Shown: positions 472 to 21,579 of the stretch, piece after piece
Numbering within the stretch: the first letter of the stretch is position 1
How the letters are laid out: each line of letters begins with the position of its first letter
Source: a virus
Lineage: Duplodnaviria > Caudoviricetes
IMG/VR virus record: IMGVR_UViG_3300016652_000041
Location: 1-25,694 of that record
Reading direction: 5' to 3' (one strand)
Length of the DNA stretch: 25,694 nt
Made by a program: the position numbers and the translations under genes
Notes under the pieces: model-generated
What the model saw: only the letters and a program-made list of their open reading frames with translations
The model's database searches: none
Told to the model about the DNA's origin: nothing

Positions 472-513
472 GCGTTGGTTCGTGACTACTCACTAACTAG
501 ATTCTTTAAATGT

Positions 514-529
514 TGGCATGGTTTATGCT
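514..529 (+). promoter_or_regulatory. Sigma54-like promoter (-24/-12)
   Basis: TGGCATGGTTTATGCT has GG-N10-GC spacing and is close to TGGCACG-N4-TTGCW. Confidence 0.4.
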
Positions 530-625
530 ATTTATTAATAAATGTATAGTAATAATAGTTTATTAATAAACATTTAATAATAAATGTATGTGTATAAGTA
601 TAATAATAACTGTAGATAAGTATAT
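530..625. repeat. Very AT-rich tract with two perfect 14-bp palindromes
   Basis: ATTTATTAATAAAT (530-543) and GTTTATTAATAAAC (558-571) plus TAATAA repeats. Confidence 0.8.
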
Positions 626-847
626 GTGAGGGGATACTAACTTAGATTAGCAACTCCCTGCTCGGCAATATTTGCCTATTGGGTACTGGGCATCGACATG
701 TCGGCCAGTACTCACTAACTTGCGTAGTCATCATTGGTCATGGGTAGTGAGCGCACACTAACTCAGCTATGTGTGTGAGTGGCTACTTACATTGGACTTT
801 GAGTCGTGGCGGGCGTGCCCCCCAACGTCCTCCCCCCATAAGAAAAA

Positions 848-875
848 TTGTGTTTCTGGTGTGGTGGTGTATAGT
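848..875 (+). promoter_or_regulatory. Possible sigma70 promoter for the rightward operon
   Basis: TTGTGT-16 nt-TATAGT, ~30 nt upstream of the AGAGAGG RBS and ATG 908. Confidence 0.3.
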
Positions 876-907
876 GTGGTTGTAGTTGTTATTTAAGAGA
901 GGCTGAC

Positions 908-1120
908 ATGTACGAGATAGAGAAGAATGTTCCGATTCCTGAGTGCCAGAAGGCTGGCAGGTTTCCTTACGAGGAGTTAGATGTGAATGATTCGTTTAGG
1001 GTAGAGGGAGTGAAGTTACAGAGTGTGTGTAACAGTAACTATCGGGCTAATAAGAGGTTGGGTAGGAAGTTTGTGGCTAGGGTAGATGGGGATGGTGTGC
1101 GGGTGTGGAGGGTTTCTTGA
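908..1120 (+). CDS. Small conserved phage protein, possibly DNA-binding
   Basis: IEKNVPIP...FPYEELDVNDSF...VRVWRV pattern is a recurrent small phage protein family; RBS AGAGAGG. Confidence 0.75.
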   Translation: MYEIEKNVPIPECQKAGRFPYEELDVNDSFRVEGVKLQSVCNSNYRANKRLGRKFVARVDGDGVRVWRVS

Positions 1121-1129
1121 GAGGGATTT

Positions 1130-1321
1130 ATGGCTACGGATATTTTGGAGAGCCTGCGGTCTGATGTTAGGAGGGAGCCTTTGGTGTGTTTAGCTGCTGC
1201 TCAGGAGATTGATTCGATGAGGGCGGAGTTAGACAGGGCCAAGAGGGATGCTTTCTTTTGGCAGATGATTGCTTGTGCCTTACAAGATGAAAATCGCCAT
1301 AGTTACGCCGACCACGGGTAA
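1130..1321 (+). CDS. Hypothetical protein with short coiled coil
   Basis: RBS GAGAGGGA; tiles between 908 ORF and glycosyltransferase; AAQEIDSMRAELDR helix. Confidence 0.65.
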   Translation: MATDILESLRSDVRREPLVCLAAAQEIDSMRAELDRAKRDAFFWQMIACALQDENRHSYADHG

Positions 1322-2039
1322 TCCGTATTTGGCTAAGGCGATCTATTCGGTGCGCTATCAGAGTGTGCCGGTGGATCACTATGTCTTTGTGGATGGTAAG
1401 CAGTATTGGTCTAAGGCGTATGAGATTACGAGGCAGTATCCGCATTTGAAGGTTTACCAGTTGCCTGAGAACACTGGGAGCAATGGGTTTAATGGGCATC
1501 GCATTTATGCGGCCTCATCGTTTTTGGTCAATGCTGACTATGTGTTTTTCTTAGATGAGGATAATTACTATGACTCCGATCATGTGGAGTCTTGTATGGC
1601 TTTGATACAGAAAAATGGTTTGGACTGGGCGTATTCCTTACGCAAGATTGTGGGTGAGGATGGTGAGTACCTGTGCCATGATGATTGTGATTCTCTTGGC
1701 TTTTATGGGAACTATTGTGATGGTCGCCCCGGCTTTGTGGATACTTCTTGCTATGCCTTTTCGTTGAAGGTTTTAACGACTCTTGGTCATGTTTGGTATA
1801 GCAATGAGTACACGACAGACTTTAGGTTTTATCAGTATGTGTCTGCCATTTTTCCCAAGTATGGCTGCACAGGGCAGTACACCAGTGAGTATCGGCTGCA
1901 TGGTAAGACCTTCCCAAGGTTTAAGGGTTGGTTTACTCCCGGTAATGCCAATGCTAGACAACAACATCCCAAGGCGTTTCCTTGGGCAACACCTAAAGTA
2001 AATGAGCCATCACCAATTCAACATAAAGCAGTTCTATAA
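1287..2039 (+). CDS. Glycosyltransferase family 2 (GT-A fold)
   Basis: N-terminal IAIVTPT..YLAKAIYSVRYQ, VFVDG, and FFLDEDNYY (DxD motif). Start set at ATG 1287 (MKIAIV). Confidence 0.85.
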   Translation: MKIAIVTPTTGNPYLAKAIYSVRYQSVPVDHYVFVDGKQYWSKAYEITRQYPHLKVYQLPENTGSNGFNGHRIYAASSFLVNADYVFFLDEDNYYDSDHVESCMALIQKNGLDWAYSLRKIVGEDGEYLCHDDCDSLGFYGNYCDGRPGFVDTSCYAFSLKVLTTLGHVWYSNEYTTDFRFYQYVSAIFPKYGCTGQYTSEYRLHGKTFPRFKGWFTPGNANARQQHPKAFPWATPKVNEPSPIQHKAVL

Positions 2040-3771
2040 GTTCTGCCAGCAGTTAAAGATTGAATCCAAGGAAAGAGGGATGATTACCCTTGGAGACACG
2101 CTTCTTGGAAGCCAGACCTATGTGATGGATGAGGTGGGCAAGGGACTCAATGATGGGGTTCACTTCTTTATAGTCCTGAAAGGACGGCAGCTTGGTATCA
2201 CCACCATCAGTCTTGCGCTTGATCTTTATTGGCACTTCCTGCACCCCGGTATGCAAGGCACCCTGACAACTGATACAGAGGAGAACAGGGAGCAGTTTAG
2301 AAGTACCTTGCAGATGTACATGGATGGCTTGCCAAAAGAGTACAAGATTCCTTTGCTCAGTCATAACCGCAATCAATTGGTTCTGAAGAACAGGTCTAGG
2401 TTGTTCTATCAGGTGGCTGGTTTGAGGGCCAAGGGTTCGCTTGGTCGGGGCAAAGGGATCACCTTTTTGCATGGCACGGAGACAAGTTCATGGGGCGATG
2501 AGGAGGGTTTAGCGTCCCTGCTTGCTTCTCTTGCAGAGACTAACCCGCTGCGCTATTACATGTTTGAGAGTACCGCCCGTGGCTTTAATATGTTCCACGA
2601 CATGTGGGTGACGGCTAAGAGGGCCAAGACTCAGAAGGCTATCTTCTGTGGCTGGTGGAGAAACCAGTTTTATTCAGTCAATGCTGATAGCAACATCTAC
2701 AAAGTGTACTGGGATGGAAAACTTAACTCCGAGGAAAAAGAATGGGTCAGAGAGATCAAGAAGATATACGGAGTGGAGATCAACTCACGCCAGATAGCTT
2801 GGTGGCGATGGAAGATGCACGAAGGACTGAAAGACGAGAGTTTGATGTATCAGGAGTTCCCGCCCACGGAAGACTATGCTTTCATAATGACGGGAACATC
2901 TTTTTTCTCTACGGCTCGATGTACGGACGCTGCGAAACTTGCAAAGAAGAATGTACCGGATCACTACCGATTCGTTTTTGGATCGAACTTTGAAGACACC
3001 CAGTTAATCAAGTCTACAGAGCGTCTAGCCACCCTGCTAATCTGGGAAGAACCCAAACCCAATGGCTACTATGTCATTGGTGCAGACCCCGCCTACGGCT
3101 CATCAGACTGGGCTGACCGCTTCTGCATACAGGTCTATAGATGCTACGCAGATGGTATGGATCAGGTGGCAGAATTTGCCACTGCTGAACTCAACACTTA
3201 TCAGTTTGCTTGGGTAATTTGCTACCTTGCTGGCTTGTATAAGAACTCGGTCTTAAACCTTGAGATTCAAGGTGGTGGGCAGGCAGTTATCAACGAGATG
3301 CGTAACTTAAAGCGTCTAGCCACTGCTATGCCCGGAGGCTATGGTAAGGCGCTTACCGATGTACTGTCGCACATGCAGTATTACCTCTGGCGGCGCAATG
3401 ACTCCCTTGGCGGCATCTCCAATAGCCTTGGTTGGCTGACTACTAGTCAGACCAAAGAGAGGATGCTTAACTACTTCAAGGATTACTTTGAGCGAGGCAT
3501 GTTAAGGGTCAGTAGCATGGATTTATTAGATGAGATGAAATCAATCACCCGTGATGGCTCACAGATTGCTGCCTATGGGAGAGGTAAGGATGACCGTGTG
3601 ATGGCTACAGGCTTGGCCTGCGCTGCCTTTGCCGAACAATTACAACCAAGGCTGATCCAAGGCAAGTTAACCAGAGAGCGTCAGGCACCCATTGAAGACA
3701 AGACTGCTGACCAGATGGCTTATCAGAGGAATGTCACCGACTATCTAAAGCGCATTGGCTATGGAACATAG
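2002..3771 (+). CDS. terL: Terminase large subunit
   Basis: Walker A LKGRQLGITT, Walker B variant FLHGTE, coupling motif ESTARG, RNase H-like nuclease motifs IGADPAYG and DDRVMA; upstream of portal. Confidence 0.92.
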   Translation: MSHHQFNIKQFYKFCQQLKIESKERGMITLGDTLLGSQTYVMDEVGKGLNDGVHFFIVLKGRQLGITTISLALDLYWHFLHPGMQGTLTTDTEENREQFRSTLQMYMDGLPKEYKIPLLSHNRNQLVLKNRSRLFYQVAGLRAKGSLGRGKGITFLHGTETSSWGDEEGLASLLASLAETNPLRYYMFESTARGFNMFHDMWVTAKRAKTQKAIFCGWWRNQFYSVNADSNIYKVYWDGKLNSEEKEWVREIKKIYGVEINSRQIAWWRWKMHEGLKDESLMYQEFPPTEDYAFIMTGTSFFSTARCTDAAKLAKKNVPDHYRFVFGSNFEDTQLIKSTERLATLLIWEEPKPNGYYVIGADPAYGSSDWADRFCIQVYRCYADGMDQVAEFATAELNTYQFAWVICYLAGLYKNSVLNLEIQGGGQAVINEMRNLKRLATAMPGGYGKALTDVLSHMQYYLWRRNDSLGGISNSLGWLTTSQTKERMLNYFKDYFERGMLRVSSMDLLDEMKSITRDGSQIAAYGRGKDDRVMATGLACAAFAEQLQPRLIQGKLTRERQAPIEDKTADQMAYQRNVTDYLKRIGYGT

Positions 3772-4180
3772 ACCCTATTCCAAAGTAGAACTTGTCAAAA
3801 TCATCAAACGCTTTGCTGCTGACAAGAAACGTGGCATTAGCCTAGAGAACTTCTGCGAGATGGCAGGCGTTGACCTGCGGGATTTCCGCAAAGCCTTCCT
3901 ACAAGAGACCATCAATATCTCAGAAGTGATGCAAATTCGGGTGTCCAAGACCATCAAATCTTGGGAAAACGGGGAAATAGCGGTCTACAAGAACTGGGAT
4001 AGAACCGTTACACCCGAATACAGACGCTTTGCCAAACCAGCCTTTAAGCGAAACATGGGCTTTGTAATGACCAAAGATGGCGTAAAGCTGGACATCGGCA
4101 TTGTCAACAGGCGTGACTACACCAAACCAACCTTCCTAGAACACTTGGAAGCATTACCAAAAAAGGGGCCAAAATGGTAA
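3761..4180 (+). CDS. Hypothetical protein with HTH-like segment
   Basis: RGISLENFCEMAGVDLRDFRKAF resembles an XRE-type HTH; overlaps terL stop; start set at ATG 3761. Confidence 0.6.
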   Translation: MEHRPYSKVELVKIIKRFAADKKRGISLENFCEMAGVDLRDFRKAFLQETINISEVMQIRVSKTIKSWENGEIAVYKNWDRTVTPEYRRFAKPAFKRNMGFVMTKDGVKLDIGIVNRRDYTKPTFLEHLEALPKKGPKW

Positions 4181-4602
4181 TCAAAGAATGGAAATGCGAA
4201 GAACACGGATACTTTGAGAGCAAAACAGCACAATGCCCACAAGGATGCACCAATGGCATCTCTCAAGTATTCCTAACACCAGTTGCTATGAAGTCAGACA
4301 AGACTAAGCATAGTGACAAGACATTAAAGCAATTAGCGATGGATTTTAATATGACGGATATAAAGAGTGCCCGTGAGGGTGAGGCGCAGCCGCCTCGTTT
4401 TGCCCAACCCAAGCCGCAGCCTGAGAATCCTTTTGCTGTGCGTTGGGGAAGTCCCGGTTCGATTGGCAATTACAACGTGCGCTCGGTTGCTGGTGAGAAT
4501 GTCAATGGTCTGGCTGCTGTCAAACAATCTGGCGTACAGTTGACAAAACCTAGAACAGCCTCGTACATTGCAGATCATCAGAACTTGAAGATTGACAAGT
4601 AA
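4174..4602 (+). CDS. Zinc-ribbon (FmdB-like) phage protein
   Basis: N-terminal EWKCEEHGYFE...CPQGC; commonly found between terminase and portal; TAATG coupling to portal. Confidence 0.65.
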   Translation: MVIKEWKCEEHGYFESKTAQCPQGCTNGISQVFLTPVAMKSDKTKHSDKTLKQLAMDFNMTDIKSAREGEAQPPRFAQPKPQPENPFAVRWGSPGSIGNYNVRSVAGENVNGLAAVKQSGVQLTKPRTASYIADHQNLKIDK

Positions 4603-6233
4603 TGCGGATACCGTCAAAAGATGCTGACCGACTTTTCTTTGTACTTGACCTGATACGCAAGTGCGAAATCTCGGTTGAGCAGCGCAAAACGACGTACAAC
4701 ACGCTACGCAATTACTTCCTGTTTGGCTCTGCACCCAATGACTCGCCAGCAGCCTTTAACAAGATTTACCCGCACATTGACCAGTTAGTCTCTTTCCTCT
4801 ACTCGGCAGAGACTACCCGCTTTAACGTCCATCTGGGCGCTACCGTCAATGAGCATGAGCATAAGAAAGTTCCTCGCCTTATCTCCGCACTGTCTGACGA
4901 ATGGCTTAACTCCAATGCAGACATGGTGTTTAACGAGGCATTGACTTGGGCGCTTTGCTACAACAGCACCTTTATCAAACTGGCGTGGCGCAATAGCGTC
5001 CATCCGTTCTTCGTAGAACCCGGAGCCATTGGTGTGCTGCGTGAGGACGTTCCCTACACGGATCGTCAAGAAGCTATCTCACAAAAGTACTACATCACCA
5101 AGTCTGAGTTGATGTCTAGGCTCTACAACCACCCAGACCGTGATCGCATCGTCAAAGAGATTACCTACATGCCCCACCAAAGGACGGATTCGCCTCAAGG
5201 TGTCTCCCGTCTGATTACCTCTCAGATCAACCCAGTCATGTACGGCAACGTCAACCTAGACTTGCAAAGCACCAACATGTACAAGCCCAATGTGGCTGAA
5301 GACACGGTGGAAATGACCGAGTTGTGGGTGTTTGATGATGAAATCAATGACTATCGGGTGTTTACGGTTGCAGACCCCGGTGTGGTGATCTACGACCGTC
5401 CGGGTGAGCAGTTATTCCTCAAAGGTGAGTTGCCCTTTGTTCAAATCTGCCCCAACCCGCAATACGACTACTACTGGGGTCAATCTGAGGTACAACGCCT
5501 GATCTACCTGCAAGACATGCGTAATAAACGCATGGGCGAGATCATGGACTTGCTTGCCAAACAGGTGTCCCCGCCAACAGCCTTGATCGGCTTTACAGGT
5601 ATCTTGGATGAGAAAGATTTTGCTCTTAACCGTGCTGGTGGTTTGCTTGCAACCGATATGCCAAACGCAAAGATTGAAAAACTATCTCCAAACATCCCAA
5701 ATGATGCCTTTAGAGAGATTAACGAGATAGATAACATGTTTGCAGAGATGTCTGGTATCTCTTCAGTCCTGCAAGGACGGGGGGAATCAGGGGTGCGCTC
5801 TGCCGGACATGCCAGTCAATTAGCCCGTCTAGGCTCCTCAAGAGCCAAAAAACGGGCGCTCATCATCGAGGATTCCCTTGAAAAGGTGGCTACGCTATAC
5901 CTAAAGATGATGCAACGCTACGATAACCGGCACTACAAGGACGAAGACAACCTGCCGTTTATCATTGAACAGTTCACAAAAGACTTTGTGGTGAAGGTGG
6001 ATGCCCACTCTAACTCCCCAATCTTTATGGAAGACAGCCGTTCGCTTGCATTTAACCTCTTCAAGGCCGGTGCATTGACTAAAGAACGGTTGATAGATAT
6101 GGTGGAACCACCGTTGAGGCAATTAATTAAGGAAGACCTTAGAAAAATGGCTCAACAACCGCAGCAACCACAAGCAGGAGGCGCTCAACCTGCTCAACCA
6201 AAAGAGAGCGCACCAATGCAAAGGGTGAAATGA
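4602..6233 (+). CDS. Portal protein (podovirus/P22-like)
   Basis: 543 aa between terL and head genes; LPFVQ..YYWGQSEV..LIYLQ, MSGISSVLQG..SGVRSA motifs; Q/P-rich C-terminal tail. Confidence 0.85.
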   Translation: MRIPSKDADRLFFVLDLIRKCEISVEQRKTTYNTLRNYFLFGSAPNDSPAAFNKIYPHIDQLVSFLYSAETTRFNVHLGATVNEHEHKKVPRLISALSDEWLNSNADMVFNEALTWALCYNSTFIKLAWRNSVHPFFVEPGAIGVLREDVPYTDRQEAISQKYYITKSELMSRLYNHPDRDRIVKEITYMPHQRTDSPQGVSRLITSQINPVMYGNVNLDLQSTNMYKPNVAEDTVEMTELWVFDDEINDYRVFTVADPGVVIYDRPGEQLFLKGELPFVQICPNPQYDYYWGQSEVQRLIYLQDMRNKRMGEIMDLLAKQVSPPTALIGFTGILDEKDFALNRAGGLLATDMPNAKIEKLSPNIPNDAFREINEIDNMFAEMSGISSVLQGRGESGVRSAGHASQLARLGSSRAKKRALIIEDSLEKVATLYLKMMQRYDNRHYKDEDNLPFIIEQFTKDFVVKVDAHSNSPIFMEDSRSLAFNLFKAGALTKERLIDMVEPPLRQLIKEDLRKMAQQPQQPQAGGAQPAQPKESAPMQRVK

Positions 6234-6397
6234 TGGCAAAACAAGCAACTGGCGGCAGCATGGTGGGCGATCAGCCCCGTATGAGTCAGAAATCCATCAG
6301 AGAGTTCTCCGATAGGACTCCAACAGTCACATATTCTCAAAAACGCATCGGTCAAGTAAAGTCTGACCGAACACAGCGCAGTTATGGCAGGGGCTAA
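6230..6397 (+). CDS. Small basic hypothetical protein (55 aa; not in ORF track)
   Basis: ATGA overlap with portal stop; MMAKQATGGSMVGDQPRMSQKSIREFSDRTPTVTYSQKRIGQVKSDRTQRSYGRG. Confidence 0.7.
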   Translation: MMAKQATGGSMVGDQPRMSQKSIREFSDRTPTVTYSQKRIGQVKSDRTQRSYGRG

Positions 6398-6414
6398 CTC
6401 TCTAGGAGAAGACT

Positions 6415-6459
6415 ATGTACGCTAAGAAAATGAAGCGTGGTCGGAAAACACGGCGCTAA
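6415..6459 (+). CDS. Arg/Lys-rich micropeptide MYAKKMKRGRKTRR (14 aa)
   Basis: AGGAGA (6404-6409) 5 nt before ATG; leader closely resembles that of the major capsid gene; 8 of 14 residues basic. Confidence 0.65.
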   Translation: MYAKKMKRGRKTRR

Positions 6460-6462
6460 AGG

Positions 6463-6514
6463 TTTCCTTAATCAGGAAAAGGGTATGGCTGCTTGCCCTG
6501 TGAACTAGGTGGCC
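6463..6514 (+). other. Structured RNA: hairpin plus H-type pseudoknot candidate
   Basis: TTTCCT/AGGAAA hairpin (6463-6479); AGGGTA/TGCCCT stem (6480-6499) whose loop GGCTGCT can pair with GGTGGCC (6508-6514). Confidence 0.45.
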
Positions 6515-6537
6515 CCTGCTATTGAAAGGAATCGATC

Positions 6538-6579
6538 ATGGCACGCAAAGCTCGCAAAGGCCGTAAGGCTCGCAAGTAA
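6538..6579 (+). CDS. Arg/Lys-rich micropeptide MARKARKGRKARK (13 aa)
   Basis: GAAAGGA (6524-6530) 7 nt before ATG; four (A/G)RK repeats encoded with varying synonymous codons. Confidence 0.7.
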   Translation: MARKARKGRKARK

Positions 6580-6580
6580 T

Positions 6581-6649
6581 TGGTAGCCCTTCGGGGCTTC
6601 CATTCAGGGGGTGGCTAGTCCACCCCTTGACAAAACAATGTTTTTTTTT
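6581..6649 (+). terminator. Tandem hairpins followed by T9 tract (terminator or 3' stability element)
   Basis: TGGTAGCCC-TTCG-GGGCTTCCA (cUUCGg loop) and TCAGGGGGTGG-CTAGT-CCACCCCTTGA; T9 at 6641-6649 is 10 nt from the stem, so not a canonical geometry. Confidence 0.45.
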
Positions 6650-6675
6650 AACCTTTGTCGTAAGTAAGTACTAAC
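6627..6675 (+). promoter_or_regulatory. Sigma70-like promoter with downstream 16-bp palindromic site
   Basis: TTGACA (6627-6632)-16 nt-TAACCT (6649-6654); GTAAGT-AAGT-ACTAAC (6660-6675) overlaps the expected +1. Confidence 0.5.
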
Positions 6676-6685
6676 TGAGGGTGTT

Positions 6686-7135: not shown

Positions 7136-7147
7136 AGGAGATTTATC

Positions 7148-7333: not shown

Positions 7334-7352
7334 CTCTAGGAAGGGGCTAACT

Positions 7353-7883
7353 ATGAGTCTGGAAAACTACACAGCAGAACAATTGGAAGAACTCGCTCTT
7401 CTGAGCAAAACCTTGGCTGAGAACAAAGAAACTCGTAAAGACTTTCTGCGTTTGACCAAAAGGGTTCGTCCTGACCTTCCCATTCCTGAACTTGAAGTCG
7501 AAGACACCGCTAATAAGTTAGCGAGTACTTACGAACAAAAGTTGCAGGCGATGGAAGCAAAACTGGCTGAGAAGGATGCCCGTGAAGAACTCTCCAAGCG
7601 CAGGGATGCCCTCAAAGCATCTGGCAAGGCTAGGAGTTCTGAGGACATTGAGGCCATTGAGAAGGTCATGCTGGAAAAGGGTATTACCAACCATGACGCT
7701 GCGGCAGATTATTGGAAGTGGATGCAGGAGACTGCTACTCCCACTCCCAGTGCTTTCCCGAAGCCAGTCATGCAACAGTTTGATGTCAACGGCTACATGA
7801 AGAATCCCGTAGTCGCTGCCAGAGAAGAAGCGATGAAAGCCTTTGAAGAATTGCGTAAGGCTCCTCGTCCAATCGGTTTGTAG
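7353..7883 (+). CDS. Putative scaffolding protein
   Basis: Highly charged coiled-coil protein immediately upstream of the major capsid gene. Confidence 0.6.
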   Translation: MSLENYTAEQLEELALLSKTLAENKETRKDFLRLTKRVRPDLPIPELEVEDTANKLASTYEQKLQAMEAKLAEKDAREELSKRRDALKASGKARSSEDIEAIEKVMLEKGITNHDAAADYWKWMQETATPTPSAFPKPVMQQFDVNGYMKNPVVAAREEAMKAFEELRKAPRPIGL

Positions 7884-7917
7884 AAGTAAATGGGGCTTAA
7901 ATTTTTAGGAGAATGAT

Positions 7918-8919
7918 ATGGCTATAGGCGGCGGCATCATTCCAGCTTCGGGAAGTAATCAGTTCAACGAGTTGACCTATGTCACCCGTAGAGCGTTCAT
8001 CCCCAAGATGGTGGTGCAAATCTACAACTCGACACCTTTAATGGCTGCTCTGCTAGCTAATAGCCAGCAAGCGTCAGGCGGTGTGTCTTCGGTGACTGTC
8101 CCTGTTCAGGGCGCTCAATTTGTCAATGCTCAGTGGTCTGACTACTCTGGCTCTTTCGCTCAACCGAGCGTTCAGCAGGGTGCTTATAACGCTGAGTTCA
8201 ACCTCAAACTGATGATCTGCCCCGTACCGTTCCTCGGTATGGAAGGTGCCGTTCAGCAGGATTACGCTATTGTCCCCCTGATCGAGGCTCGTATGAACGA
8301 TGCGACCAACGTCATGCTGGACTCAATGGCTTACTCCCTGTACAACAACACCAGCGATACTCAGCAATTTACCGGCCTGCCTGCTGCGGTTTCCGCTACC
8401 GGCACCTACGGTAACATTGACCGGTCTCAGTATTCTTGGTGGCAGTCTAAGGCTTATGCCGCAGGCTCCGTCAACCCCACTCGTCAGAACTTGCTCCAGT
8501 ACATTTCCGGTACGGTTAAGAACTGTGCAGAAGTTCCTTCGTTTGGCGTTTGCGGATTCGGTACTTGGACGCTGCTTGCTCAAGACTTCGTAGGTCAAGA
8601 GCAGTATGTGATTACTCCGGGTTCCGCATTTACTAGCGATCCTAATGGCGCACAGGCTGCTTTCCGTGCCCTGATGGTTGCTGGTGTTCCCATTTATCCT
8701 GACCCCTACTGCCCAGAGGGAACTCTGTACCTGTTGAACAACAACTACCTGTCGCTCTATATCCATGAGCAGGGTTCGTTTGCGTTCACCGGTTTTGAGT
8801 CAACCCTACCGAACTGGCAGATTGGATATGTTGGCGCTGTTCTGACCATTGCTGAACTGGTTAGCACCAAGCCCAAGTCCATGACTGCGGTCACGGGTTA
8901 CAACTATCTGTCACTATAA
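7918..8919 (+). CDS. Major capsid protein (HK97-fold)
   Basis: 333 aa; strong RBS AGGAGA; QFTGLPAAV, GTYGNIDRSQYSWWQ, GVPIYPDPYCPEGTLYLLNNNYL motifs typical of this capsid class; strongly biased codons. Confidence 0.88.
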   Translation: MAIGGGIIPASGSNQFNELTYVTRRAFIPKMVVQIYNSTPLMAALLANSQQASGGVSSVTVPVQGAQFVNAQWSDYSGSFAQPSVQQGAYNAEFNLKLMICPVPFLGMEGAVQQDYAIVPLIEARMNDATNVMLDSMAYSLYNNTSDTQQFTGLPAAVSATGTYGNIDRSQYSWWQSKAYAAGSVNPTRQNLLQYISGTVKNCAEVPSFGVCGFGTWTLLAQDFVGQEQYVITPGSAFTSDPNGAQAAFRALMVAGVPIYPDPYCPEGTLYLLNNNYLSLYIHEQGSFAFTGFESTLPNWQIGYVGAVLTIAELVSTKPKSMTAVTGYNYLSL

Positions 8920-8931
8920 GGGAGATAGAAA

Positions 8932-9684: not shown

Positions 9685-9778
9685 GAACTTTGTTATCGGA
9701 AATAGCCACTTACCAGCCCCGGTGGGAATGGAAACCCTTGAAGGTGAGTGAATACTCACTTTCTTGGGTAGAAGTTCT
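9684..9778 (+). other. Multibranch RNA structure filling the head/tail intergenic gap
   Basis: Closing stem AGAACTTT/GAAGTTCT encloses three hairpins, the last carrying GTGAGT-GAAT-ACTCAC (9744-9759). Confidence 0.45.
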
Positions 9779-10681: not shown

Positions 10682-12412
10682 ATGGCGCAATCCGCAGAAC
10701 AATCTAAGCGCTACCATGTAACCAAAGACTTTAAGGGCATGGACACCAAGGCCAACAGAACGGCTATTGGCGCTGACGAGTTCTCTTACATTGAAAATGC
10801 CATGCCAATTGGCTTTGGCAACATGCGGGTCATTGCCGCACCCGATACCGTGGCTAATGTCACCTTCAGTGGCAACGTGGTATCCATGTTCTCGGCTTCC
10901 ATCAATTTGGCTAATGTCAACTCAGACATCATTGTTGCCATGCTGGACAATGGCGCATCGCAATATGTCAACCTGACTGCTGGCAATACGCTAGGCAACA
11001 TTGCCAATGCGTCAACATTCTCCAACAGTGGGGTTCAGGTTACACAGTGGAAAAATGAGCGTGTTTTGTTCATCGACCCCATAAAAGGCTACAAAACATG
11101 GGATGGAACGAGCCTCAATAGCGTAGGCAGTGTACTGTCCGTAACCATAACCAGTGGCGGCAGTGGCTACACTTCTGCGCCTAATGTGACGATTTCTGCC
11201 CCTAATGAAGCGAATGGCGTACAGGCGACTGCGGTTGCTTCCCTCACAGGCAATACGGTAAGCAGCGTAACGATTACCGAGGCCGGATCGGGATACACCA
11301 ATTCTGCCAATCTGACGGTCAGTTTTAGCACCGGTAACGCCAATGCGACAGCTACTCTTTTCAGCCAAGTTGGAACCTCCATTGCTACGTTTTCAGGGCG
11401 TGTCTGGATTGCCGATGGACGCACCATCTATTACTCGGCTGCTGACTCCTACAACGACTTTGGCACCATATCAGCCGGTAACATCACACTAACCGACTCA
11501 ACGCTACACGGCAACATCATCCAGTTAGTGAGTGCTAACAACTTCTTGTATGTCTTTGGTAGCGATTCCATTAACGTCTTATCTGATGTGCGGGTGTCCT
11601 CTATCAATGGTGAGACGCTCTTTAGCAATACCAACATCTCGGCATCCATTGGCTCTGACCTGCCAGATGCCATCTTCCCTTACTTCCGGTCAATCCTGTT
11701 TATGAACCGCTATGGCATGTACGCTCTAGTGGGTTCTACGACTAGCAAGATCAGTGATGCCTTAGATGGTGTTTTCCCTTACATTGACTTTAACTATCCC
11801 ATCTCTGCCTGTCAGGTCTTGTTAAACAACATCCTGTGTGCTGCCTTTAACTTCCGCACCAACTACTACACAGGCTCTAGTCGCTTTGTGCAGGCGATAT
11901 TCTTTGACAAGAAGTGGTTTATCACCAATCAGTCTGACTCGCTCAAGTACATCGTGAGCAGCCCTGTGGGTGGCACAATTGAGTCTTATGGCACCCGTGG
12001 CGATGACTTTGTGAACCTGTATGCCAACACCAGTGCCTCGATAGCCAGCACGGTGCAGACGGCTTTGCTTCCGATGGGTGATCCAATCAGGGACAAGCAG
12101 GCGCTCAAGATTGGGGTGGAGTTGACCTCTACGGCTGGTGCGGTCTGTTATGCCACGGTAGACAATGAGAACAGGTCATCTAGTCAGATTACGCTGTCAT
12201 CTGGGGTGACATGGTACAACCTTAACAATGTCACGATACCGTGGGTGAACAACTCAAATGCAGAGATTGACTGGATCAACTCAGGGTATTTCCTTTATAA
12301 GTCAGATGCACAACAATATGGGAAATATCTTGGTATGACGCTGACTTCCAATAGTGCAGCTTTTATCTACAACGGAATGAACTTTGAATACGAATTGAGA
12401 GCGAGGTACTAA
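10682..12412 (+). CDS. Tail nozzle / packaged-DNA stabilisation protein-like (beta-propeller) with GSGY-repeat insertion
   Basis: DFKGMDT N-terminus, FSGRVWIADGRTIYYS, NFLYVFGSDSINV, SKISDAL; follows adaptor gene. Confidence 0.65.
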   Translation: MAQSAEQSKRYHVTKDFKGMDTKANRTAIGADEFSYIENAMPIGFGNMRVIAAPDTVANVTFSGNVVSMFSASINLANVNSDIIVAMLDNGASQYVNLTAGNTLGNIANASTFSNSGVQVTQWKNERVLFIDPIKGYKTWDGTSLNSVGSVLSVTITSGGSGYTSAPNVTISAPNEANGVQATAVASLTGNTVSSVTITEAGSGYTNSANLTVSFSTGNANATATLFSQVGTSIATFSGRVWIADGRTIYYSAADSYNDFGTISAGNITLTDSTLHGNIIQLVSANNFLYVFGSDSINVLSDVRVSSINGETLFSNTNISASIGSDLPDAIFPYFRSILFMNRYGMYALVGSTTSKISDALDGVFPYIDFNYPISACQVLLNNILCAAFNFRTNYYTGSSRFVQAIFFDKKWFITNQSDSLKYIVSSPVGGTIESYGTRGDDFVNLYANTSASIASTVQTALLPMGDPIRDKQALKIGVELTSTAGAVCYATVDNENRSSSQITLSSGVTWYNLNNVTIPWVNNSNAEIDWINSGYFLYKSDAQQYGKYLGMTLTSNSAAFIYNGMNFEYELRARY

Positions 12413-12415
12413 ACC

Positions 12416-13354
12416 ATGACCGCTAAAGTCACCATACCCAATACGTTTGCCACGGCAACTACTGCCATACCGTTATCTCAGTTAGATAACAACTTCTCTA
12501 ATGTAAGTGCCGCTATCAATAATGCGCTTACCTATTCTAACTACGCAGTCGATACTGGTCTAGCGGATAACTATGCCATTACGATCAGTGGTCAGGTGAC
12601 AACGTATGCGGCTGGTTTGTCGTTCCAGTTTAAGGCTGCTAACACCAATACGGGTGCTTCTACCCTTAATGTGAACGCTCAGGGTACGCAATCCATTGTC
12701 AGGACGGATGGTTCGGCCTTGGCTGCTGGTGACATCCTTGCCAATGCAATCGTAGCGGTCATGTATGACGGTACTAACTTCCAGTTGATGAATGATGCTG
12801 GTGGTAAGGCTGAAACCTTTAGCAATGTCACGGTTACAGGCACAGCCACCATCAATGTGGCAAATGTGACCACATTTAGCCCCGCTATCACCAATGCCCA
12901 ATTAGCCAACTCTAATGTCACCATTGGCAATACGGCAGTCAGCCTCGGTGGAACGATCACTACCATTAACAACGCTACGTTAGTGAACGCTAACGTGGCA
13001 TCAGGCAATGTGACGGTGACTACGGTATCTGACCAATATGGCAATGTGAGGGCGATTGCTGATGTTGGTAGCAAGACAAGTGCTTACACGCTTACAAAGG
13101 CAGATGTAGGGCGTTATGTAACGATTGGTTCTGGTGGATCAATCAACATTACAGACAACGTATTTCTGTCTGGTGATGTGGTGTCTATCTTTAATAACAC
13201 CAATGCCAATGCCAACATCGTATGTACGATTACTACGGCATATATTGCCGGTACGGATTCAGATAAGGCAAGTGTAAACGTGGCAACCCGTGGCGTGGCT
13301 ACGGTATTGTTTATTTCCAATACGGCTTGTGTGATTGCAGGGAACGTATCCTAA
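12416..13354 (+). CDS. Tail fibre/spike-associated structural protein
   Basis: LSQLDNNF attachment motif, YAAGLSFQFKAANTNTGASTLNVN, MYDGTNFQL, C-terminal RGVATVLF..VIAGNVS. Confidence 0.7.
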   Translation: MTAKVTIPNTFATATTAIPLSQLDNNFSNVSAAINNALTYSNYAVDTGLADNYAITISGQVTTYAAGLSFQFKAANTNTGASTLNVNAQGTQSIVRTDGSALAAGDILANAIVAVMYDGTNFQLMNDAGGKAETFSNVTVTGTATINVANVTTFSPAITNAQLANSNVTIGNTAVSLGGTITTINNATLVNANVASGNVTVTTVSDQYGNVRAIADVGSKTSAYTLTKADVGRYVTIGSGGSINITDNVFLSGDVVSIFNNTNANANIVCTITTAYIAGTDSDKASVNVATRGVATVLFISNTACVIAGNVS

Positions 13355-15729: not shown

Positions 15730-15731
15730 GT

Positions 15732-16256
15732 GTGCCACAAGGTAGATTCCACAAAAATCAAAGCGGGCAAAAAATTGGGATGCTTACGCTTTTGAAGTTG
15801 ACCGATCAAAAAACTGCCAATGGTGGCTATAAATATCTGGTCAAGTGTGACTGCGGAACGGAAAAGATTATTGGGTATAGTTACATGACCCAAAACAAAA
15901 CGCAGTCATGTGGATGTTTACAAAGGCGCAAAGGAGTAAACAGTCCAAACTTTAAACATGGCCTATCTCAGAATAGAGATTCGGTAGAGTACAAACGCTA
16001 TCAGCGTGAGTGTTTTGATAAGCACAAATACAATCTTGAGCCAGAGCAAAAAACTGCATTGATTGAAAGTCAAAACAATTCTTGCGCTATCTGCTCCTAT
16101 GAGTTTGGGCAAAAAGTTGGAGATATGAAAGTTGACCATGACCATGCAACAGGTAAGGTTCGTGGCTTATTGTGTGACTTATGCAACCGTGGTCTTGGGA
16201 TGTTCAAAGATAGCCAAGACAATCTGAATAAAGCAATCTCTTATCTAGCGAGGTAA
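15732..16256 (+). mobile_element. Free-standing homing endonuclease, endonuclease VII (His-Me finger) domain
   Basis: N-terminal KCDCG..SCGC module; C-terminal QNNSCAIC..VDHDHATGKVRGLLCDLCNRGLGMFKD; more A-rich than flanks; interrupts fibre module. Confidence 0.82.
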
Positions 16257-16258
16257 TC

Positions 16259-16768
16259 ATGGCATTTCAATTGAACGGTAAACCAATCAACATCAAAAAA
16301 GAGTACATCCGTGAAGACGGTGTGCGCTATGAAAACCTGCTAGACGCTGCGGTACGGGCAAAGTTAGGCGTGGTTGAAAACAATGATCCAGACCCGTTTG
16401 AGCCTAATGAACCTTGGTATGACCAGCGTTTTTATTGGGGTGTAAATAATCCCAAGCAGCTAGAAGACATCACGGTTACGCCTGAAGAAGAAAACAGGGA
16501 GCCATATACCCAAAAAGGTATGAAGTCCCAATGGATTGCTCAGATCAAAGATACGGCTGGCAAGATGCTTGCACAGACCGATTGGATGGTGATTCGTAAG
16601 GCAGAAAGAGGCGTGGATATTCCTGTTGCTACTCAAACGTATCGTGCTGCTGTGATTGCCGAGGCTAACAGACTTGAGACTGCGATTGCTGCCTGCGCTG
16701 ATGTGCCTGCGCTGATTGCTGTTGTTGAATCACAAGATTGGCCTAAGGGAGAAGACAATGGGAATTAA
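16259..16768 (+). CDS. Tail fibre assembly chaperone-like protein
   Basis: LAQTDWMVIRKAE...YRAAV...WP motif; follows fibre gene. Confidence 0.65.
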   Translation: MAFQLNGKPINIKKEYIREDGVRYENLLDAAVRAKLGVVENNDPDPFEPNEPWYDQRFYWGVNNPKQLEDITVTPEEENREPYTQKGMKSQWIAQIKDTAGKMLAQTDWMVIRKAERGVDIPVATQTYRAAVIAEANRLETAIAACADVPALIAVVESQDWPKGEDNGN

Positions 16769-17102
16769 CGCATTTACCGCCATGGGCAAGACGGTCAAGC
16801 TGACTGCTGCCACTACCGCACCAAGCCCTGTTCAGGTGCCATCTTTTACGGTTGGTGGCAATCAGTACCGGGTGATTAACCTGTCGAGCAATACTGCTTG
16901 CTGGCTGGCCTATTCGCAGACTTCCGCTGACGCAGCCACTAATTGTGTGATTCCGACTGGCGCTGGTGCTAACAGCACAACGGTGCTGACTTTGCTGCCT
17001 CAGACGGATGAGATTCTGTCTTTTGTGCCCAATGCGTACTTCACGGCAATTACGTCATCTGGCACAGCAGACTTGTACATTACGCCCGGTGATGGGCTGT
17101 AA
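16758..17102 (+). CDS. Small beta-rich virion-like protein (paralogue of 25275..25634)
   Basis: Start set at ATG 16758 after AAGGGAGA; ends LYITPGDGL. Confidence 0.7.
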   Translation: MGINAFTAMGKTVKLTAATTAPSPVQVPSFTVGGNQYRVINLSSNTACWLAYSQTSADAATNCVIPTGAGANSTTVLTLLPQTDEILSFVPNAYFTAITSSGTADLYITPGDGL

Positions 17103-17112
17103 GGAGTAAACC

Positions 17113-17850
17113 ATGTTAAAGGCGTTAGGCGGCTTTGCATCATCTGGTGGTGGTGTTGGGGCAGTAACTTATAAGGGCACTTGGAACGCCTCTACAAACA
17201 CGCCTACGCTTGTCTCTAGCACCGGAACTCAGGGTGATTACTATGTGGTCAGCGTTGCCGGTACTACAAACCTGAATGGTATTACCGACTGGCAGATTGG
17301 TGACTGGGCCATCTTTAATGGCACGGTTTGGCAGAAAGTTGACAATACAGATGCGGTAACTTCTGTGAACGGGCAGGTTGGAACTGTTGTTCTAACCGCA
17401 GCCAACGTAGGAGCTACCCCTAATACCACCTTTGTACTAGCCGGAACAGGCATCAATGGTGGTGGACAGCTTAATGCCAACGTGACCATTGACTTGGCTA
17501 ACACGGCAGTAACCGCTGGCACTTATGGCAATGCAACACAAGTCGGGCAGGTTGTCATTGATGCACAAGGGCGCATCACCAATGCCTCTAATGTCACTAT
17601 TGCCATTTCTACATCTAATGTATCCGGCCTCGGAACAATGGCTACTCAAAACGCCAACTCCGTGGCAATCACAGGCGGTAACGTCAATAGTGTAATCATC
17701 AATTCAGCTACGTTAGTAAGCGCTAACATCTCTGCAACTACAGCAAATACGGCAGCGATGCCAGACCCAAGTCTTCCTTTGAACCCGGAAGGCTACATCA
17801 CAGTTTCTATTAATGGCACCAATAAGAAAATTCCTTATTACGGGGTATAA
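17113..17850 (+). CDS. Fibre-like structural protein
   Basis: YKGTWNASTNTPTL, GDYYVVSVAG, VTSVNGQVGTVVL, VTAGTYG..IDAQGRIT, GLGTMATQNAN repeats typical of phage fibres; RBS AAGGAG. Confidence 0.75.
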   Translation: MLKALGGFASSGGGVGAVTYKGTWNASTNTPTLVSSTGTQGDYYVVSVAGTTNLNGITDWQIGDWAIFNGTVWQKVDNTDAVTSVNGQVGTVVLTAANVGATPNTTFVLAGTGINGGGQLNANVTIDLANTAVTAGTYGNATQVGQVVIDAQGRITNASNVTIAISTSNVSGLGTMATQNANSVAITGGNVNSVIINSATLVSANISATTANTAAMPDPSLPLNPEGYITVSINGTNKKIPYYGV

Positions 17851-18084
17851 ATGGATGGTCAAACTTTAATCAATCTTGGATTTAGTGTTGGTGGCGTTCT
17901 CGGTGGGTGGATACTAAAAACCGTCTGGGATGAGATCAAACTGCTTCAGCACAATCAAAGAGAAATAGAACGCAACTTAACTGATAACTATGTTAAGCGT
18001 GATGACTATAAAGATGACATATACGAGATCAAGACGATGCTCAATGACATCTATAAAGAATTGCGTAACAAGGCAGACAAGTGA
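17851..18084 (+). CDS. Single-TM lysis-region protein (holin/antiholin-like)
   Basis: N-terminal hydrophobic helix, coiled coil, YVKRDDY motif; upstream of holin and endolysin. Confidence 0.6.
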   Translation: MDGQTLINLGFSVGGVLGGWILKTVWDEIKLLQHNQREIERNLTDNYVKRDDYKDDIYEIKTMLNDIYKELRNKADK

Positions 18085-18452
18085 TTGCGGAAACTATCAT
18101 TGGCGCTCTAGTACCTGTTGGTGTTGAAGGCATCAAGCAGGTGGTTGCCCGTTTCTTTGGCGGGGTAAGAGCAACAACGATAGATGAGCAGATCAAGTTA
18201 GATGAGAATGAAATCAAGCGTATTGAGGCACTGGCTCGACTGGATACTCCTATTGGCACTCCTAGCCAATGGGTTGTTGACCTTCGGGCCTCTGCTCGTT
18301 ACGTTGGTGCTCTAGTTGTTATTGCCGTTGGAATCATAACCATTCTGACAGGCACCGATGCCAAGGTGCAAGAGATAGCATTGCAGGCGGCAAATATTTC
18401 CTTTGGCTTCTTGTTTGGTAGTCGTATTGTGACTGGGTGGCAGAAAAAATGA
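18081..18452 (+). CDS. Putative holin (3-TM type)
   Basis: Hydrophobic segments, SQWVVDLRASAR and FGFLFGSR motifs; ATGA overlap with endolysin. Confidence 0.65.
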   Translation: MIAETIIGALVPVGVEGIKQVVARFFGGVRATTIDEQIKLDENEIKRIEALARLDTPIGTPSQWVVDLRASARYVGALVVIAVGIITILTGTDAKVQEIALQAANISFGFLFGSRIVTGWQKK

Positions 18453-18889
18453 CTTATCTGACTCCGCACTTTACTTTAGAGGAATTGAGTGCTTCAGAGA
18501 TTGCGGAGCGTCATGGTATTGACAATACTCCGCCAGAGGACGTAGAGGACAACCTCAAGCGGCTTGCAATGGCTCTTGAGGAGATCAGAGTCTTGCTTGG
18601 GGGGAGGCCCATACATGTTACCTCGGCGTATCGTAGCCCGGAGGTCAATCGGCTGGTCGGTTCAAAACCTACTTCTGACCACACTAAGGGCTTGGCAGCA
18701 GATTTTGTTTGTCCGTCTTTTGGCGGGCCAGACGATGTGGTACGGGCGATTCTTGCTTCTCCTATATCGTTCAAGCAAGTTATTAGAGAGTTTGATCGCT
18801 GGACGCACTTCTCAATACCAGAGCAAGGAGAGGAGCCGAGGAAGCAAGCACTCATCATAGATAAGACAGGAACAAGAGGTTACGCATAA
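18449..18889 (+). CDS. Endolysin, peptidase M15A family
   Basis: LTPHFTLEEL, SAYRSPEVNRLVG, SDHTKGLAAD (H-x6-D) and WTH zinc ligands. Start set at ATG 18449. Confidence 0.88.
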   Translation: MTYLTPHFTLEELSASEIAERHGIDNTPPEDVEDNLKRLAMALEEIRVLLGGRPIHVTSAYRSPEVNRLVGSKPTSDHTKGLAADFVCPSFGGPDDVVRAILASPISFKQVIREFDRWTHFSIPEQGEEPRKQALIIDKTGTRGYA

Positions 18890-19230
18890 TGAATCTCGAT
18901 GACCTAGCTACGGTTCAGTATGGAGATGATGAGGGATTCAACAGGTTTTTGTTTGAGAACTACCTGCAGCACATACTCTTTAAGGATGTGTTAGCAGGCG
19001 CTAACATAGTCATACCGCAGTACCCAATAGCCGATGCAGACCCAACAGATGTGGATGATTGGCTATTGGCGCATCAGCAAGAGCATCAGGCGATTTCAGC
19101 CGCCCTTGGTCTTGACAACCCGATCAATTTGTTAGATACAGATTGGAGAAAAGAGGGTGATTTTTACGATTGGCTGAATAACCACTATTTGTTGCATACA
19201 CAGATCATAACAAGACTGGGACTCACATAA
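18889..19230 (+). CDS. Hypothetical acidic, His-rich helical protein
   Basis: TAATG coupling on both sides; repeated DWL..H...H motif. Confidence 0.7.
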   Translation: MNLDDLATVQYGDDEGFNRFLFENYLQHILFKDVLAGANIVIPQYPIADADPTDVDDWLLAHQQEHQAISAALGLDNPINLLDTDWRKEGDFYDWLNNHYLLHTQIITRLGLT

Positions 19231-19688
19231 TGGCACAACCAGACGTAATGAAACTGCTAGAGAAAGAACAGGGTAAGGCACCTCGTCTTTCTACTCAAGA
19301 AATTGTACAGGAAAGTCTACGCCGTACTGGTGAGGAGGATCAGTTTGAAGACCTCTATGGGCGTATGCAGTCGGCTTTGAAGACACCTCAGTTCAGAATT
19401 ATGCGTTCTGGAAACACTCTGTTGTTTTACAAGATTGTAACGCCAAAAGATACAGTAGAGTTCGACATCTTGACTGCAGACTCTCCCAAAGAGTTGCTCA
19501 ATAGTCTAAAAGACTTGATGGAGGCCATGAAGAAAGCAGGCTTCAAGCGTGGCATTGCCAAGACCGAAAATACCAATCTAGTGAACATAGCCAACTCTGC
19601 AGGCATCCCCGTACAGGTCAAGATGGGGGAGCGCATGATGGGCGATCAAATGGTTCCAACACAAATCGTGGAAGTGGGGTTGCAATAA
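19230..19688 (+). CDS. Hypothetical protein, possible GNAT-like fold preceding ejection genes
   Basis: Position before ejection block and alpha/beta pattern (MKKAGFKRGIAKT); fold is an inference. Confidence 0.55.
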   Translation: MAQPDVMKLLEKEQGKAPRLSTQEIVQESLRRTGEEDQFEDLYGRMQSALKTPQFRIMRSGNTLLFYKIVTPKDTVEFDILTADSPKELLNSLKDLMEAMKKAGFKRGIAKTENTNLVNIANSAGIPVQVKMGERMMGDQMVPTQIVEVGLQ

Positions 19689-20542
19689 TGGGTGGCGTTG
19701 TTAGAGCAGTTGAAAAAACCGCTAAAGCAATTATTGAGAACCCATTGCCGGTTATTGAGACAATTGCTTTGACCGCTATTGGGGTTCCGCCTCCTGTTGC
19801 ATCAGCCGTTGTGAGCGCTGCCAACGGTGGCGACATGGGCGACATTGCCAAATCCTATGTCGGTGCTGAACTTGGTGGTCAAGTAGCCGGTGAAGTAGGC
19901 GGTCAAGTGGCTGGTGCTGTAGACCCTGCTGTACAACAAATTATTGAATCGGCAACTGCCGGTGCGGTAAAAAGTGCCGTAACGGGTGGTGATGTTGGTG
20001 AAGGTGCGGTTACTGGTGCGGTTAGTTCTGGTATCAAGAAGGGCATTGACTATGTAGGAGATCAGTTTGCAGAGCCATTAGGGACGGGTATCACGCCCGG
20101 AGCCGGTGGTGAGACTGGTCTTACGCCTAGAGTTCCAGAGCTGCCTGCTGCTGGCGATATTGGGACTACGCCTGTGGACTATTCATTTGTCCCTCCAAGC
20201 CAGACAACTGCTCCCGGCATGGGTGGCGCTCAGGGTACTGGCATCACCGCTACAACCCTGCCTGAGCCTCCCTCACCTACAGAGGAGTTTGGCAAAGAGG
20301 CTGTGAAAGCAGGTGAGTCCTTACTAACTAGTGCTTTGACTAGAGGCGTTACAGATTCAATTTATGGAGGTTCGCAGCCCACCTCTACCTCTGCATTGAC
20401 ATCGACTGGTCTATTCCAGCCGGTATCTATTGTTCCCACTTCTTCTACTGGTATTGCCCCTGTTGCACGGGGTGCGCCAATCCTCGGTGGTGAGGATGAG
20501 GAAGCAACTGGTGTTTGGGGTAGAAAGACTCTGAGAGGATAA
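19688..20542 (+). CDS. Putative internal virion/ejection protein
   Basis: G/A-rich N-terminal helices starting MGG; low-complexity P/T/G C-terminal half. Confidence 0.55.
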   Translation: MGGVVRAVEKTAKAIIENPLPVIETIALTAIGVPPPVASAVVSAANGGDMGDIAKSYVGAELGGQVAGEVGGQVAGAVDPAVQQIIESATAGAVKSAVTGGDVGEGAVTGAVSSGIKKGIDYVGDQFAEPLGTGITPGAGGETGLTPRVPELPAAGDIGTTPVDYSFVPPSQTTAPGMGGAQGTGITATTLPEPPSPTEEFGKEAVKAGESLLTSALTRGVTDSIYGGSQPTSTSALTSTGLFQPVSIVPTSSTGIAPVARGAPILGGEDEEATGVWGRKTLRG

Positions 20543-20544
20543 GT

Positions 20545-21579
20545 ATGAGCAAATTAGCGGCCTTATTGGGTGGAATGACCCTAAATGATTTAGCCAAAGA
20601 GGTTCTGCAACTGCAGGGTCGGCGTGGCGATACTCAGCTTGCTCACATCAACAAGCGTGAGGCTGCTTTGCTTAAAGACGCTGGTGGCTCTGGAACTATT
20701 AACCCAAACACGGGTATGCAAGAGTTCTATGAGGACGCTTACGATATTGGCGGAGAGCAATATCTTGGTCAAAGTTTCGATACAAGCACTCCTGAACCCT
20801 CTTACGGTGCTGCTATGTATGACCGTGACTTCGATATTGGTACTGTTGGGCAACCCACCCCCCAAGTGGGTGGGGGGCAACTTTCTGCCCCGCCCCAAGA
20901 AAATTTCGGTTTTGACCAGATAGGTGAATCCTACGCAGTTCCCGGTGTAATCCCCGGTGCAGCACCATCTCCATATACAGGAGTTCCCGGTCTGCCAGCG
21001 CAGGGTGAAACCTTTTCGTATGAACCCAGTTTCCAAGACACCCTGTCTGACATTGGTGGTCAGGCTAAAGAGTTCCTCAAGCAACCCGGAGTGGCCCGTG
21101 CTGCTACTGCTGCCGCACTTGGTGTACCCGGATTGGTGGCTGCTCGTCAGGCTCGTCAGGAAGCGGCTAAGACCCGTGCTGAGATGGAGAGAATGGCTGC
21201 ACCAATTCGTCAGACTGGTGAGCAATTATTGCAAGCAGGTCAGGCTGGTACATTGACTGCCCCGCAGCAGCAACAAGTACAAGCGCTACAGGCTGCTCAG
21301 GCTCAGGCTAGGGTTAGGCGTGGTGCGACAAGTGGAACGGCACAGGCTCAAGATCAAGCCCGTGTAGCAGAGTTTGTCCAAAGGTTAGCGCAGACTAACA
21401 TTGACAATGGTGTGCGTCTGATTGGTGCTGCCAACTCCTATAACGCTACTGCCATTCAAAATGCCTATCGGATGAATCAGGATGCCAATACCCTGACTCA
21501 GAATTACTTTACAAATCTGATGAGAGCAGCAGGCGCACTGCCTAGCCCGACAACCACCACGACTACGACTCAGGGCTAA
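20545..21579 (+). CDS. Putative internal virion/ejection protein
   Basis: GRRGDTQLAHIN..EAALLK..GGSGTINPNTG..EFY motif recurrent in phage proteins; Q/A-rich helical C-terminus. Confidence 0.6.
   Translation: MSKLAALLGGMTLNDLAKEVLQLQGRRGDTQLAHINKREAALLKDAGGSGTINPNTGMQEFYEDAYDIGGEQYLGQSFDTSTPEPSYGAAMYDRDFDIGTVGQPTPQVGGGQLSAPPQENFGFDQIGESYAVPGVIPGAAPSPYTGVPGLPAQGETFSYEPSFQDTLSDIGGQAKEFLKQPGVARAATAAALGVPGLVAARQARQEAAKTRAEMERMAAPIRQTGEQLLQAGQAGTLTAPQQQQVQALQAAQAQARVRRGATSGTAQAQDQARVAEFVQRLAQTNIDNGVRLIGAANSYNATAIQNAYRMNQDANTLTQNYFTNLMRAAGALPSPTTTTTTTQG

Follow-up and report, generated by a model that had tools for sequence, protein, structure and literature searches.

The stretch of DNA analyzed here (the window, 25,694 nt at full length) comes from a tailed phage, of whose genome it is a 25.7-kb piece, IMG/VR record IMGVR_UViG_3300016652_000041. 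It encodes terminase (2002-3771), portal (4602-6233) and major head (7918-8919) proteins, together with an adaptor, fibres, endonuclease VII, an M15 endolysin and a DNA-ejection protein. Copies of a 16-bp dyad, GTDAGY-N4-RCTHAC, are dispersed through both its genes and its non-coding DNA, and an earlier note made from the sequence alone had likened them to binding sites for SlmA, a bacterial nucleoid-occlusion factor whose binding to FtsZ depends on DNA. Named relatives of the phage come from spring water, have no recorded host and measure 34–36 kb, so that about 10 kb of its early region is probably missing from the window. No longer contig was found for the window's sub-clade.

The dyad and its 20-bp extension

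The earlier note listed eleven exact dyads, and every one lies at the position given for it. Dinucleotide shuffles of the window (100) yielded a mean of 0.03 and a maximum of 1. When spacers of 0 to 12 nt were scanned, only a spacer of 4 (11 matches) and a spacer of 0 (3 matches, all nested inside N4 sites) gave hits. Near matches had also been proposed at 482, 626 and 704; the first two have a single mismatch, as does a further one at 478, while 704 has two dyad mismatches and is part of only a weak 20-mer (700-719). Seven of the exact dyads are inside coding sequences (CDS), each with the in-frame TTA leucine codon that had been described, six in the same register and 20313 in another. TTA is an ordinary codon in the window's genes (77/589 Leu codons). 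The amino-acid-preserving control that the note had called for gave a mean of 0.10 and a maximum of 2 in-CDS dyads over 3000 synonymous resamplings, against the 7 observed. The consensus was derived post hoc, and it recurs in contigs outside those used to derive it. The dyad motif is confirmed as genuine and is present far above chance.

A pair of dyads shifted by 4 bp relative to each other gives a 20-bp site, GTDAGTDAGYRCTHACTHAC, of which the single dyad is one half. The SlmA half-site has G, T, A and G at positions 1, 2, 4 and 5, a purine at position 3 and a pyrimidine at position 6 (PMC3020112). The window half-site follows this rule and is palindromic, its sole departure being that T is also seen at position 3. 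SlmA engages DNA as a dimer of dimers (PMC4726725, PMC4396457), and we infer that each 16-bp dyad would be the footprint of one dimer and each pair offset by +4 that of a dimer of dimers. With up to 3 mismatches the 20-mer has 10 matches at 9 loci in the window, where 0.10 are expected, and 5 in CDS against 0.06 in 150 synonymous resamplings. The extension was also recovered elsewhere: 187 dyads from other viral contigs, whose flanks were not used in choosing them, extend to the same 20-mer, and 97 of the 187 form +4 pairs. Of the 187, 161 have T at position 17, 171 have A or T at 18, 141 have A at 19 and 120 have C at 20.

At the same threshold of 3 mismatches the chromosome of E. coli K-12 contains 27 20-mers against 11 for the control. 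None of the 27 is located between 1.2 and 2.2 Mb, which we take to be the bounds of the terminus (p 0.0014), and the stretch from 938,521 to 2,519,703 is free of them. The 27 include SBS12 and SBS17, two SlmA-binding sites (SBS), as given in the primers of PMC4117426. Copies are about 60 times denser in the window (9 per 25.7 kb) than in E. coli (27 per 4.64 Mb), for which 24–52 SlmA sites and ~300–400 SlmA molecules have been reported (PMC4726725). The bare 16-mer does not behave in this way, with 16 matches against 13 for the control and 4 of the 16 between 1.2 and 2.2 Mb. It was rejected as a chromosomal signal, being enriched neither in E. coli nor in four metagenome-assembled genomes (MAGs) nor in 201 genomes of a betaproteobacterial order. 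The likeness to SlmA sites thus holds through the 20-bp double dyad and fails for the 16-mer alone.

Retention among relatives and occurrence in other phages

Conservation at synonymous sites, another check proposed at the outset, is evident for the dyad at 11524, which codon choice preserves in four divergent relatives. It is intact at 92, 76, 75 and 60% protein identity, with only GTG/GTA and AGT/AGC varying, and the probability of chance retention is 0.015 per lineage. In three further relatives that encode LVSAN, the codons break the dyad. At 7517 the window encodes KLASTY in place of the xRASxA of most of the 14 closest relatives listed, which suggests that residues there may have been altered to suit the site. 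The dyad at 12979 is absent from relative L001, whose protein is 89% identical, and L002 has a different dyad in the same gene, judging by its offset. Individual sites thus come and go, and their total remains high.

Comparison of 160 terminase loci, some of them duplicated between collections, gave 28 sites in 81 kb among loci of at least 88% identity, with sites upstream of terL in all 8 that had enough flank. Loci below 80% identity held 57 sites in 1312 kb, and sites upstream of terL in 4 of 83. De novo scans for exact palindromes in 80 relatives revealed no comparable motif, the pooled output being dominated by homology, and scans using two late window open reading frames (ORFs) found no relatives.

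A search of IMG/VR with a 14-base seed returned 121 loci, and in 30 of these a 300-bp stretch contains three or more dyads. The 22 arrays with flanking sequence are non-coding and mostly located between early genes and terS/terL. They adjoin terminase genes of at least four groups, between which blastp aligns barely or not at all. Perfect copies of the 20-mer occur in roughly 350 IMG/VR stretches, a number estimated from 122 in 23 of the 64 IMG/VR parts, compared with 0 for the reversed control. One array (G208 37394-811; L327, L328) carries ten 20-mers, nine of them perfect, and extends over the ends of a phage contig that is complete at 37.8 kb. When one array was searched by blastn against cultured phages, three Rhizobium phages were the only matches, and no dyads were found in cultured or named relatives of the array-bearing groups.

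The sites of the window are listed below with two landmarks. The region 470..800 was analyzed through its ORFs, site scans and alignment with 5 relatives; its site at 743..762 is also present in relatives whose TerL is 91% identical.

Table 1. Putative SlmA-type sites and landmark features of the window
Feature	Coordinates	Strand	Remarks
Loose cluster of five SlmA-type sites	470..800		Non-coding; leftward early genes on one side, rightward packaging operon on the other
20-bp SlmA-type site	478..497		2 mismatches; near-dyads at 478 and 482 overlap; also present in L228 and L233
Weak site	626..645		Dyad with 1 mismatch, 20-mer with 4; better site nearby in L229
Weak site	700..719		20-mer with 4 mismatches
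20-bp site	743..762		2 mismatches; holds exact dyad 747-762
20-bp site	771..790		3 mismatches; holds exact dyad 775-790
Terminase large subunit	2002..3771	+	phrog_2, E 8.7e-14; landmark downstream of the site cluster
Possible sigma-70 promoter	6627..6655	+	TTGACA, 17 bp, TAACCT; precedes head genes; weak -10
Intergenic 20-bp site	6660..6679		2 mismatches; covers predicted start of the 6627 promoter
In-gene site	7513..7536		ORF 7353-7883 (probable scaffold, from its location); KLASTY encoded
Intergenic 20-bp site	9744..9763		2 mismatches; kept in L001, 4 bp shorter in L002 and L232
In-gene site	11524..11543		ORF 10682-12412 (virion structural protein); encodes QLVSAN
In-gene dyad	12979..12994		ORF 12416-13354; inner 12 bp identical to the SBS12 primer core (E. 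coli)
In-gene site	17712..17731		Tail-protein ORF 17113-17850; 3 mismatches
In-gene dyad	18990..19005		ORF 18889-19230; 20-mer with 4 mismatches
In-gene site	20309..20328		ORF 19688-20542; 3 mismatches
In-gene dyad	21384..21399		ORF 20545-21579; 20-mer with 5 mismatches; weakest

Several other features were observed in these genomes. A G/C-rich tract (806-837) that separates the site cluster from the packaging genes is almost unchanged among relatives and is possibly a packaging signal; tracts resembling it adjoin the arrays of other phages. Upstream of the head genes are two tiny Arg/Lys-rich ORFs, 6415-6459 (14 aa) and 6538-6579 (13 aa), both kept in L001, L002, L230 and L232, which possibly encode DNA-condensing peptides. 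Between them a hairpin-like conserved stretch (~6480-6515), for which Rfam gave no match, has a 3' arm complementary to conserved sequence at ~9705-9715, 3.2 kb away, so that the pair brackets the head genes. The endonuclease VII gene (15732-16256) lies amid the tail genes, and one early gene in a close relative is Rap1a immunity-like (L231:2086-2403).

SlmA and the 20-mer in betaproteobacteria

An slmA gene scoring above the NCBIfam cut-off was found in 146 of 201 genomes sampled from the order of a betaproteobacterial MAG, a tally that takes in one genome (G027) adding no site. Genomes with slmA contained 64 20-mers against 57 control matches, and those without it 10 against 43 (Fisher 2.6e-5, uncorrected for kinship). 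Exclusion from the terminus, which had been proposed as a check on the predicted host, was analyzed in ten hand-picked genomes with large contigs, seven of which begin at dnaA. On these seven chromosomes (one of them site-free) 26 of 29 20-mers are in the origin half. The three genomes left out of this count were G047, which lacks slmA and has 8 sites against 12 for the control, G106, with 0 sites, and G117, whose 5 sites are all within 1.2 of 6.0 Mb. The genus of G089, which has small genomes, yielded 189 sites against 72 control matches in 81 genomes, many of them apparently at orthologous places. In this genus a site is also found at the very start or end of the chromosome contig (G089:C1:1710984, G468:C1:177 and G478:C1:145), and in G089 it adjoins dnaA. 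In two other genomes a 20-mer is positioned ~400 bp upstream of slmA (G031:C14:174178 and G084:C4:162775), in G031 inside the preceding gene.

The DNA-binding head of betaproteobacterial SlmA is conserved, 16–19 of the 25 helix-turn-helix residues being shared with the E. coli protein. T33 and E45 are invariant in 5/5 proteins, and F65 and N102, which regulate FtsZ in E. coli, are kept.

Short contigs with homologues of window genes were found in 3 of 151 genomes of one genus, and no homologues of substance were found in 401 genomes across the order. Betaproteobacterial MAG contigs matching the window carry no dyads. Assigning a host by prophage or spacer was tried and rejected, as 1 of 401 genomes gave a match, and that one of 38 bp. 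The slmA-positive bin G063 includes a contig from another phage, which has a perfect 20-mer. Our candidate for the host is a betaproteobacterium with slmA.

Proposed role, alternatives and known systems

Host SlmA probably binds the sites of the window, judging from their agreement with the 20-bp site. Bound to phage copies, it would antagonize FtsZ as in E. coli. As the phage genome replicates, its copies would recruit SlmA so that FtsZ rings are broken up throughout the cell and division is delayed, to the benefit of the phage. Tens of genomes, each with ~10 sites, would pull SlmA away from the chromosome and disperse active complexes, as happens on SBS plasmids; Z rings are inhibited when a multicopy plasmid carries SBS in tandem (PMC3573117). 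By analogy with these plasmid experiments a septation block caused by phage DNA is plausible. Because sites are scattered through coding sequence, their number and dose seem a better account than promoter control. Binding and phenotype are both predictions, and that the purpose is a cell-wide division delay during infection is in our judgement close to an even call, leaning slightly against. We put forward more tentatively still that many uncultured phages delay or arrest cytokinesis without a protein of their own, through DNA-borne nucleoid-occlusion sites whose dose as FtsZ antagonist rises with replication.

Several observations weigh against this explanation. Site density is high in the sub-clade of the window alone, at 3.5 per 10 kb against 0.43, and most relatives are without sites. 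Four copies in the window, dispersed or clustered, are poor 20-mers with 4–5 mismatches, and the behaviour of the bare 16-mer on the E. coli chromosome also counts on this side. SBS17 was in mind when the 20-mer pattern was written, so its recovery is not independent, and the betaproteobacterial genome tallies share the lack of correction for kinship. Of the residues that regulate FtsZ in E. coli, R73 is replaced by Leu and G97 is not kept in the same five betaproteobacterial proteins. The host is pointed to only by short co-binned contigs, two of the four genome matches being betaproteobacterial MAGs, and ~10 kb of the phage genome probably lies outside the window. The site at 6660 overlaps a possible promoter. 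Finally, the plasmid-borne division block used ~4-fold extra SlmA (PMC4117426, PMC3573117).

Two alternatives are, in our view, about equally unlikely. In one, host SlmA is a borrowed transcription factor acting at the early/late switch and at the head-gene promoter, with in-gene copies adding binding or roadblocks. Five sites are located between the divergent early and packaging genes, an arrangement that most other arrays share, and a site flanks the TTGACA of the 6627 promoter in all 5 aligned sequences, across which this hexamer does not change. SlmA is also known to activate Pchb in V. cholerae (10.1101/141812) and to repress an SBS reporter promoter (PMC3573117). However, 7 of the 11 dyads are mid-gene, distant from promoters and under codon-level selection, and the occupied regions are nearly the sole non-coding space. 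The side of the promoter that is occupied varies, the site in L002, L230 and L232 adjoining the upstream side of the 6627-type -35 instead, which suggests that position is of little weight; the promoter itself is weak and was not called in the promoter scan of the window.

The other alternative, to which we give the same low weight, is that the sites are read by a phage-encoded protein or another host protein of convergent specificity, such as a repressor, a packaging factor or a DNA-organizing factor. Rhizobium phage B1VFA (MT770738.1; L317-L319) has 30 matches to the 20-mer, and SSU5, to which it is related (portal 51% identical), has 6, while the 20-mer is absent from T7, T5, lambda, P26218, DU_RP_II and DSL-LC05. 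By its annotation the B1VFA matches are mostly at gene junctions, and the phage encodes annotated ParA, ParB and RepC. To our knowledge Rhizobium is not expected to encode SlmA, the alphaproteobacterial check consisting of a Caulobacter control only. Because B1VFA is nonetheless rich in sites, it is likely that a non-SlmA protein can read such a site, and the 20-mer pattern by itself is no proof of SlmA. The placement of arrays close to terS/terL, and over the contig ends for G208, is consistent with such a reader, as is the position of part of the early region outside the window.

On the other side, half-sites of B1VFA and SSU5 have A at positions 3 and 7 in 91–97% of cases, where the window and the arrays are degenerate, and because of this difference their variant may be a separate system. 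Arrays also occur in terminase groups that align barely or not by blastp. A phage-encoded SlmA or TetR protein was rejected, as the SlmA profile gave a best E value of 0.71, TetR_N was found in none of 31 records, including 8 viral ones with a completeness of 90% or more, and the window, an incomplete genome, has no TetR gene. Nine INPHARED matches seem, going by identity and titles, to be host DNA or distant TetRs. The complete site-rich genomes have no regulator in common, and no candidate reader emerged from 22 early ORFs taken from the window and the two relatives closest to it. ORF 908-1120, considered in that role, resembles DUF7303, a small phage protein, and is also present in site-free relatives.

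Less probable again is that host SlmA binds for a local end, keeping the septum off phage DNA or being titrated from the chromosome. Nucleoid occlusion normally shields the DNA that bears the sites, and the ~300–400 SlmA molecules of E. coli (PMC4726725) would be outnumbered by tens of genomes with ~10 sites each. Plasmid-borne complexes, though, inhibit Z rings globally and not locally (PMC3573117), and no integrase or partition gene was recognized in the window. The remaining explanation, that amino-acid content and codon bias produce the matches incidentally, we regard as refuted for practical purposes: LVSAN and LVNAN peptides are common in these virion proteins and shared by some relatives, but synonymous resampling (7 vs 0.10), the 20-mer counts (9 loci vs 0.10; 5 vs 0.06 in CDS), the four non-coding copies, the three LVSAN relatives with site-breaking codons and the IMG/VR counts (~350 vs 0) all contradict it.

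Binding by host SlmA, our preferred explanation, places the window beside several described systems. The SlmA site itself is already known, and its occurrence on phage DNA is the new part. No report of SlmA sites on phage DNA, and no description of them in betaproteobacteria, was found in full-text searches of openly available literature, judged from listings and the openings of abstracts. The chromosomal SBS of E. coli, K. pneumoniae and V. cholerae (PMC3020112, PMC4117426, PMC3116907, PMC4726725) resemble the window sites in the half-site rule and in having many copies in coding regions; SBS12 and SBS17 are among the sites that the 20-mer picks up, and the +4 pairs are consistent with binding by a dimer of dimers. 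Unlike them, the window sites are phage-borne, ~60-fold denser and in many cases single dyads, and their likely reader would be a betaproteobacterial SlmA. The analysis also yields a model of the 20-bp SlmA site that reaches to betaproteobacteria, and the 20-mer is a possible host marker for uncultured phages, a use that the Rhizobium case limits. The 20-bp gene-junction palindrome of SSU5 and B1VFA fits the same pattern; it differs in being strict for A at positions 3 and 7, in belonging to larger plasmid-like phages and, for B1VFA, in a host not expected to have SlmA.

Extrachromosomal multicopy sites that delocalize a nucleoid-occlusion factor and block division are known from pUC-2xSBS (PMC3573117, PMC4117426) and from the plasmid carrying Noc-binding sites (NBS; PMC4726725). 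These are laboratory constructs, used with ~4-fold extra SlmA in E. coli, whereas the window is natural, with more but weaker sites. What the window contributes is the embedding of sites at codon level, with turnover, together with tests on the chromosomes of betaproteobacteria and one counter-example. The means by which phages are known to block division are proteins. The FtsZ inhibitors lambda Kil (PMC3961180) and P1 Icd (PMC11897509) bring about the outcome predicted here, division arrest in infection, but the window would do so as cis-acting DNA using a host protein. If this is true, it would be a DNA-only takeover through the host's nucleoid-occlusion factor, hidden from gene annotation and written partly in codon choice.

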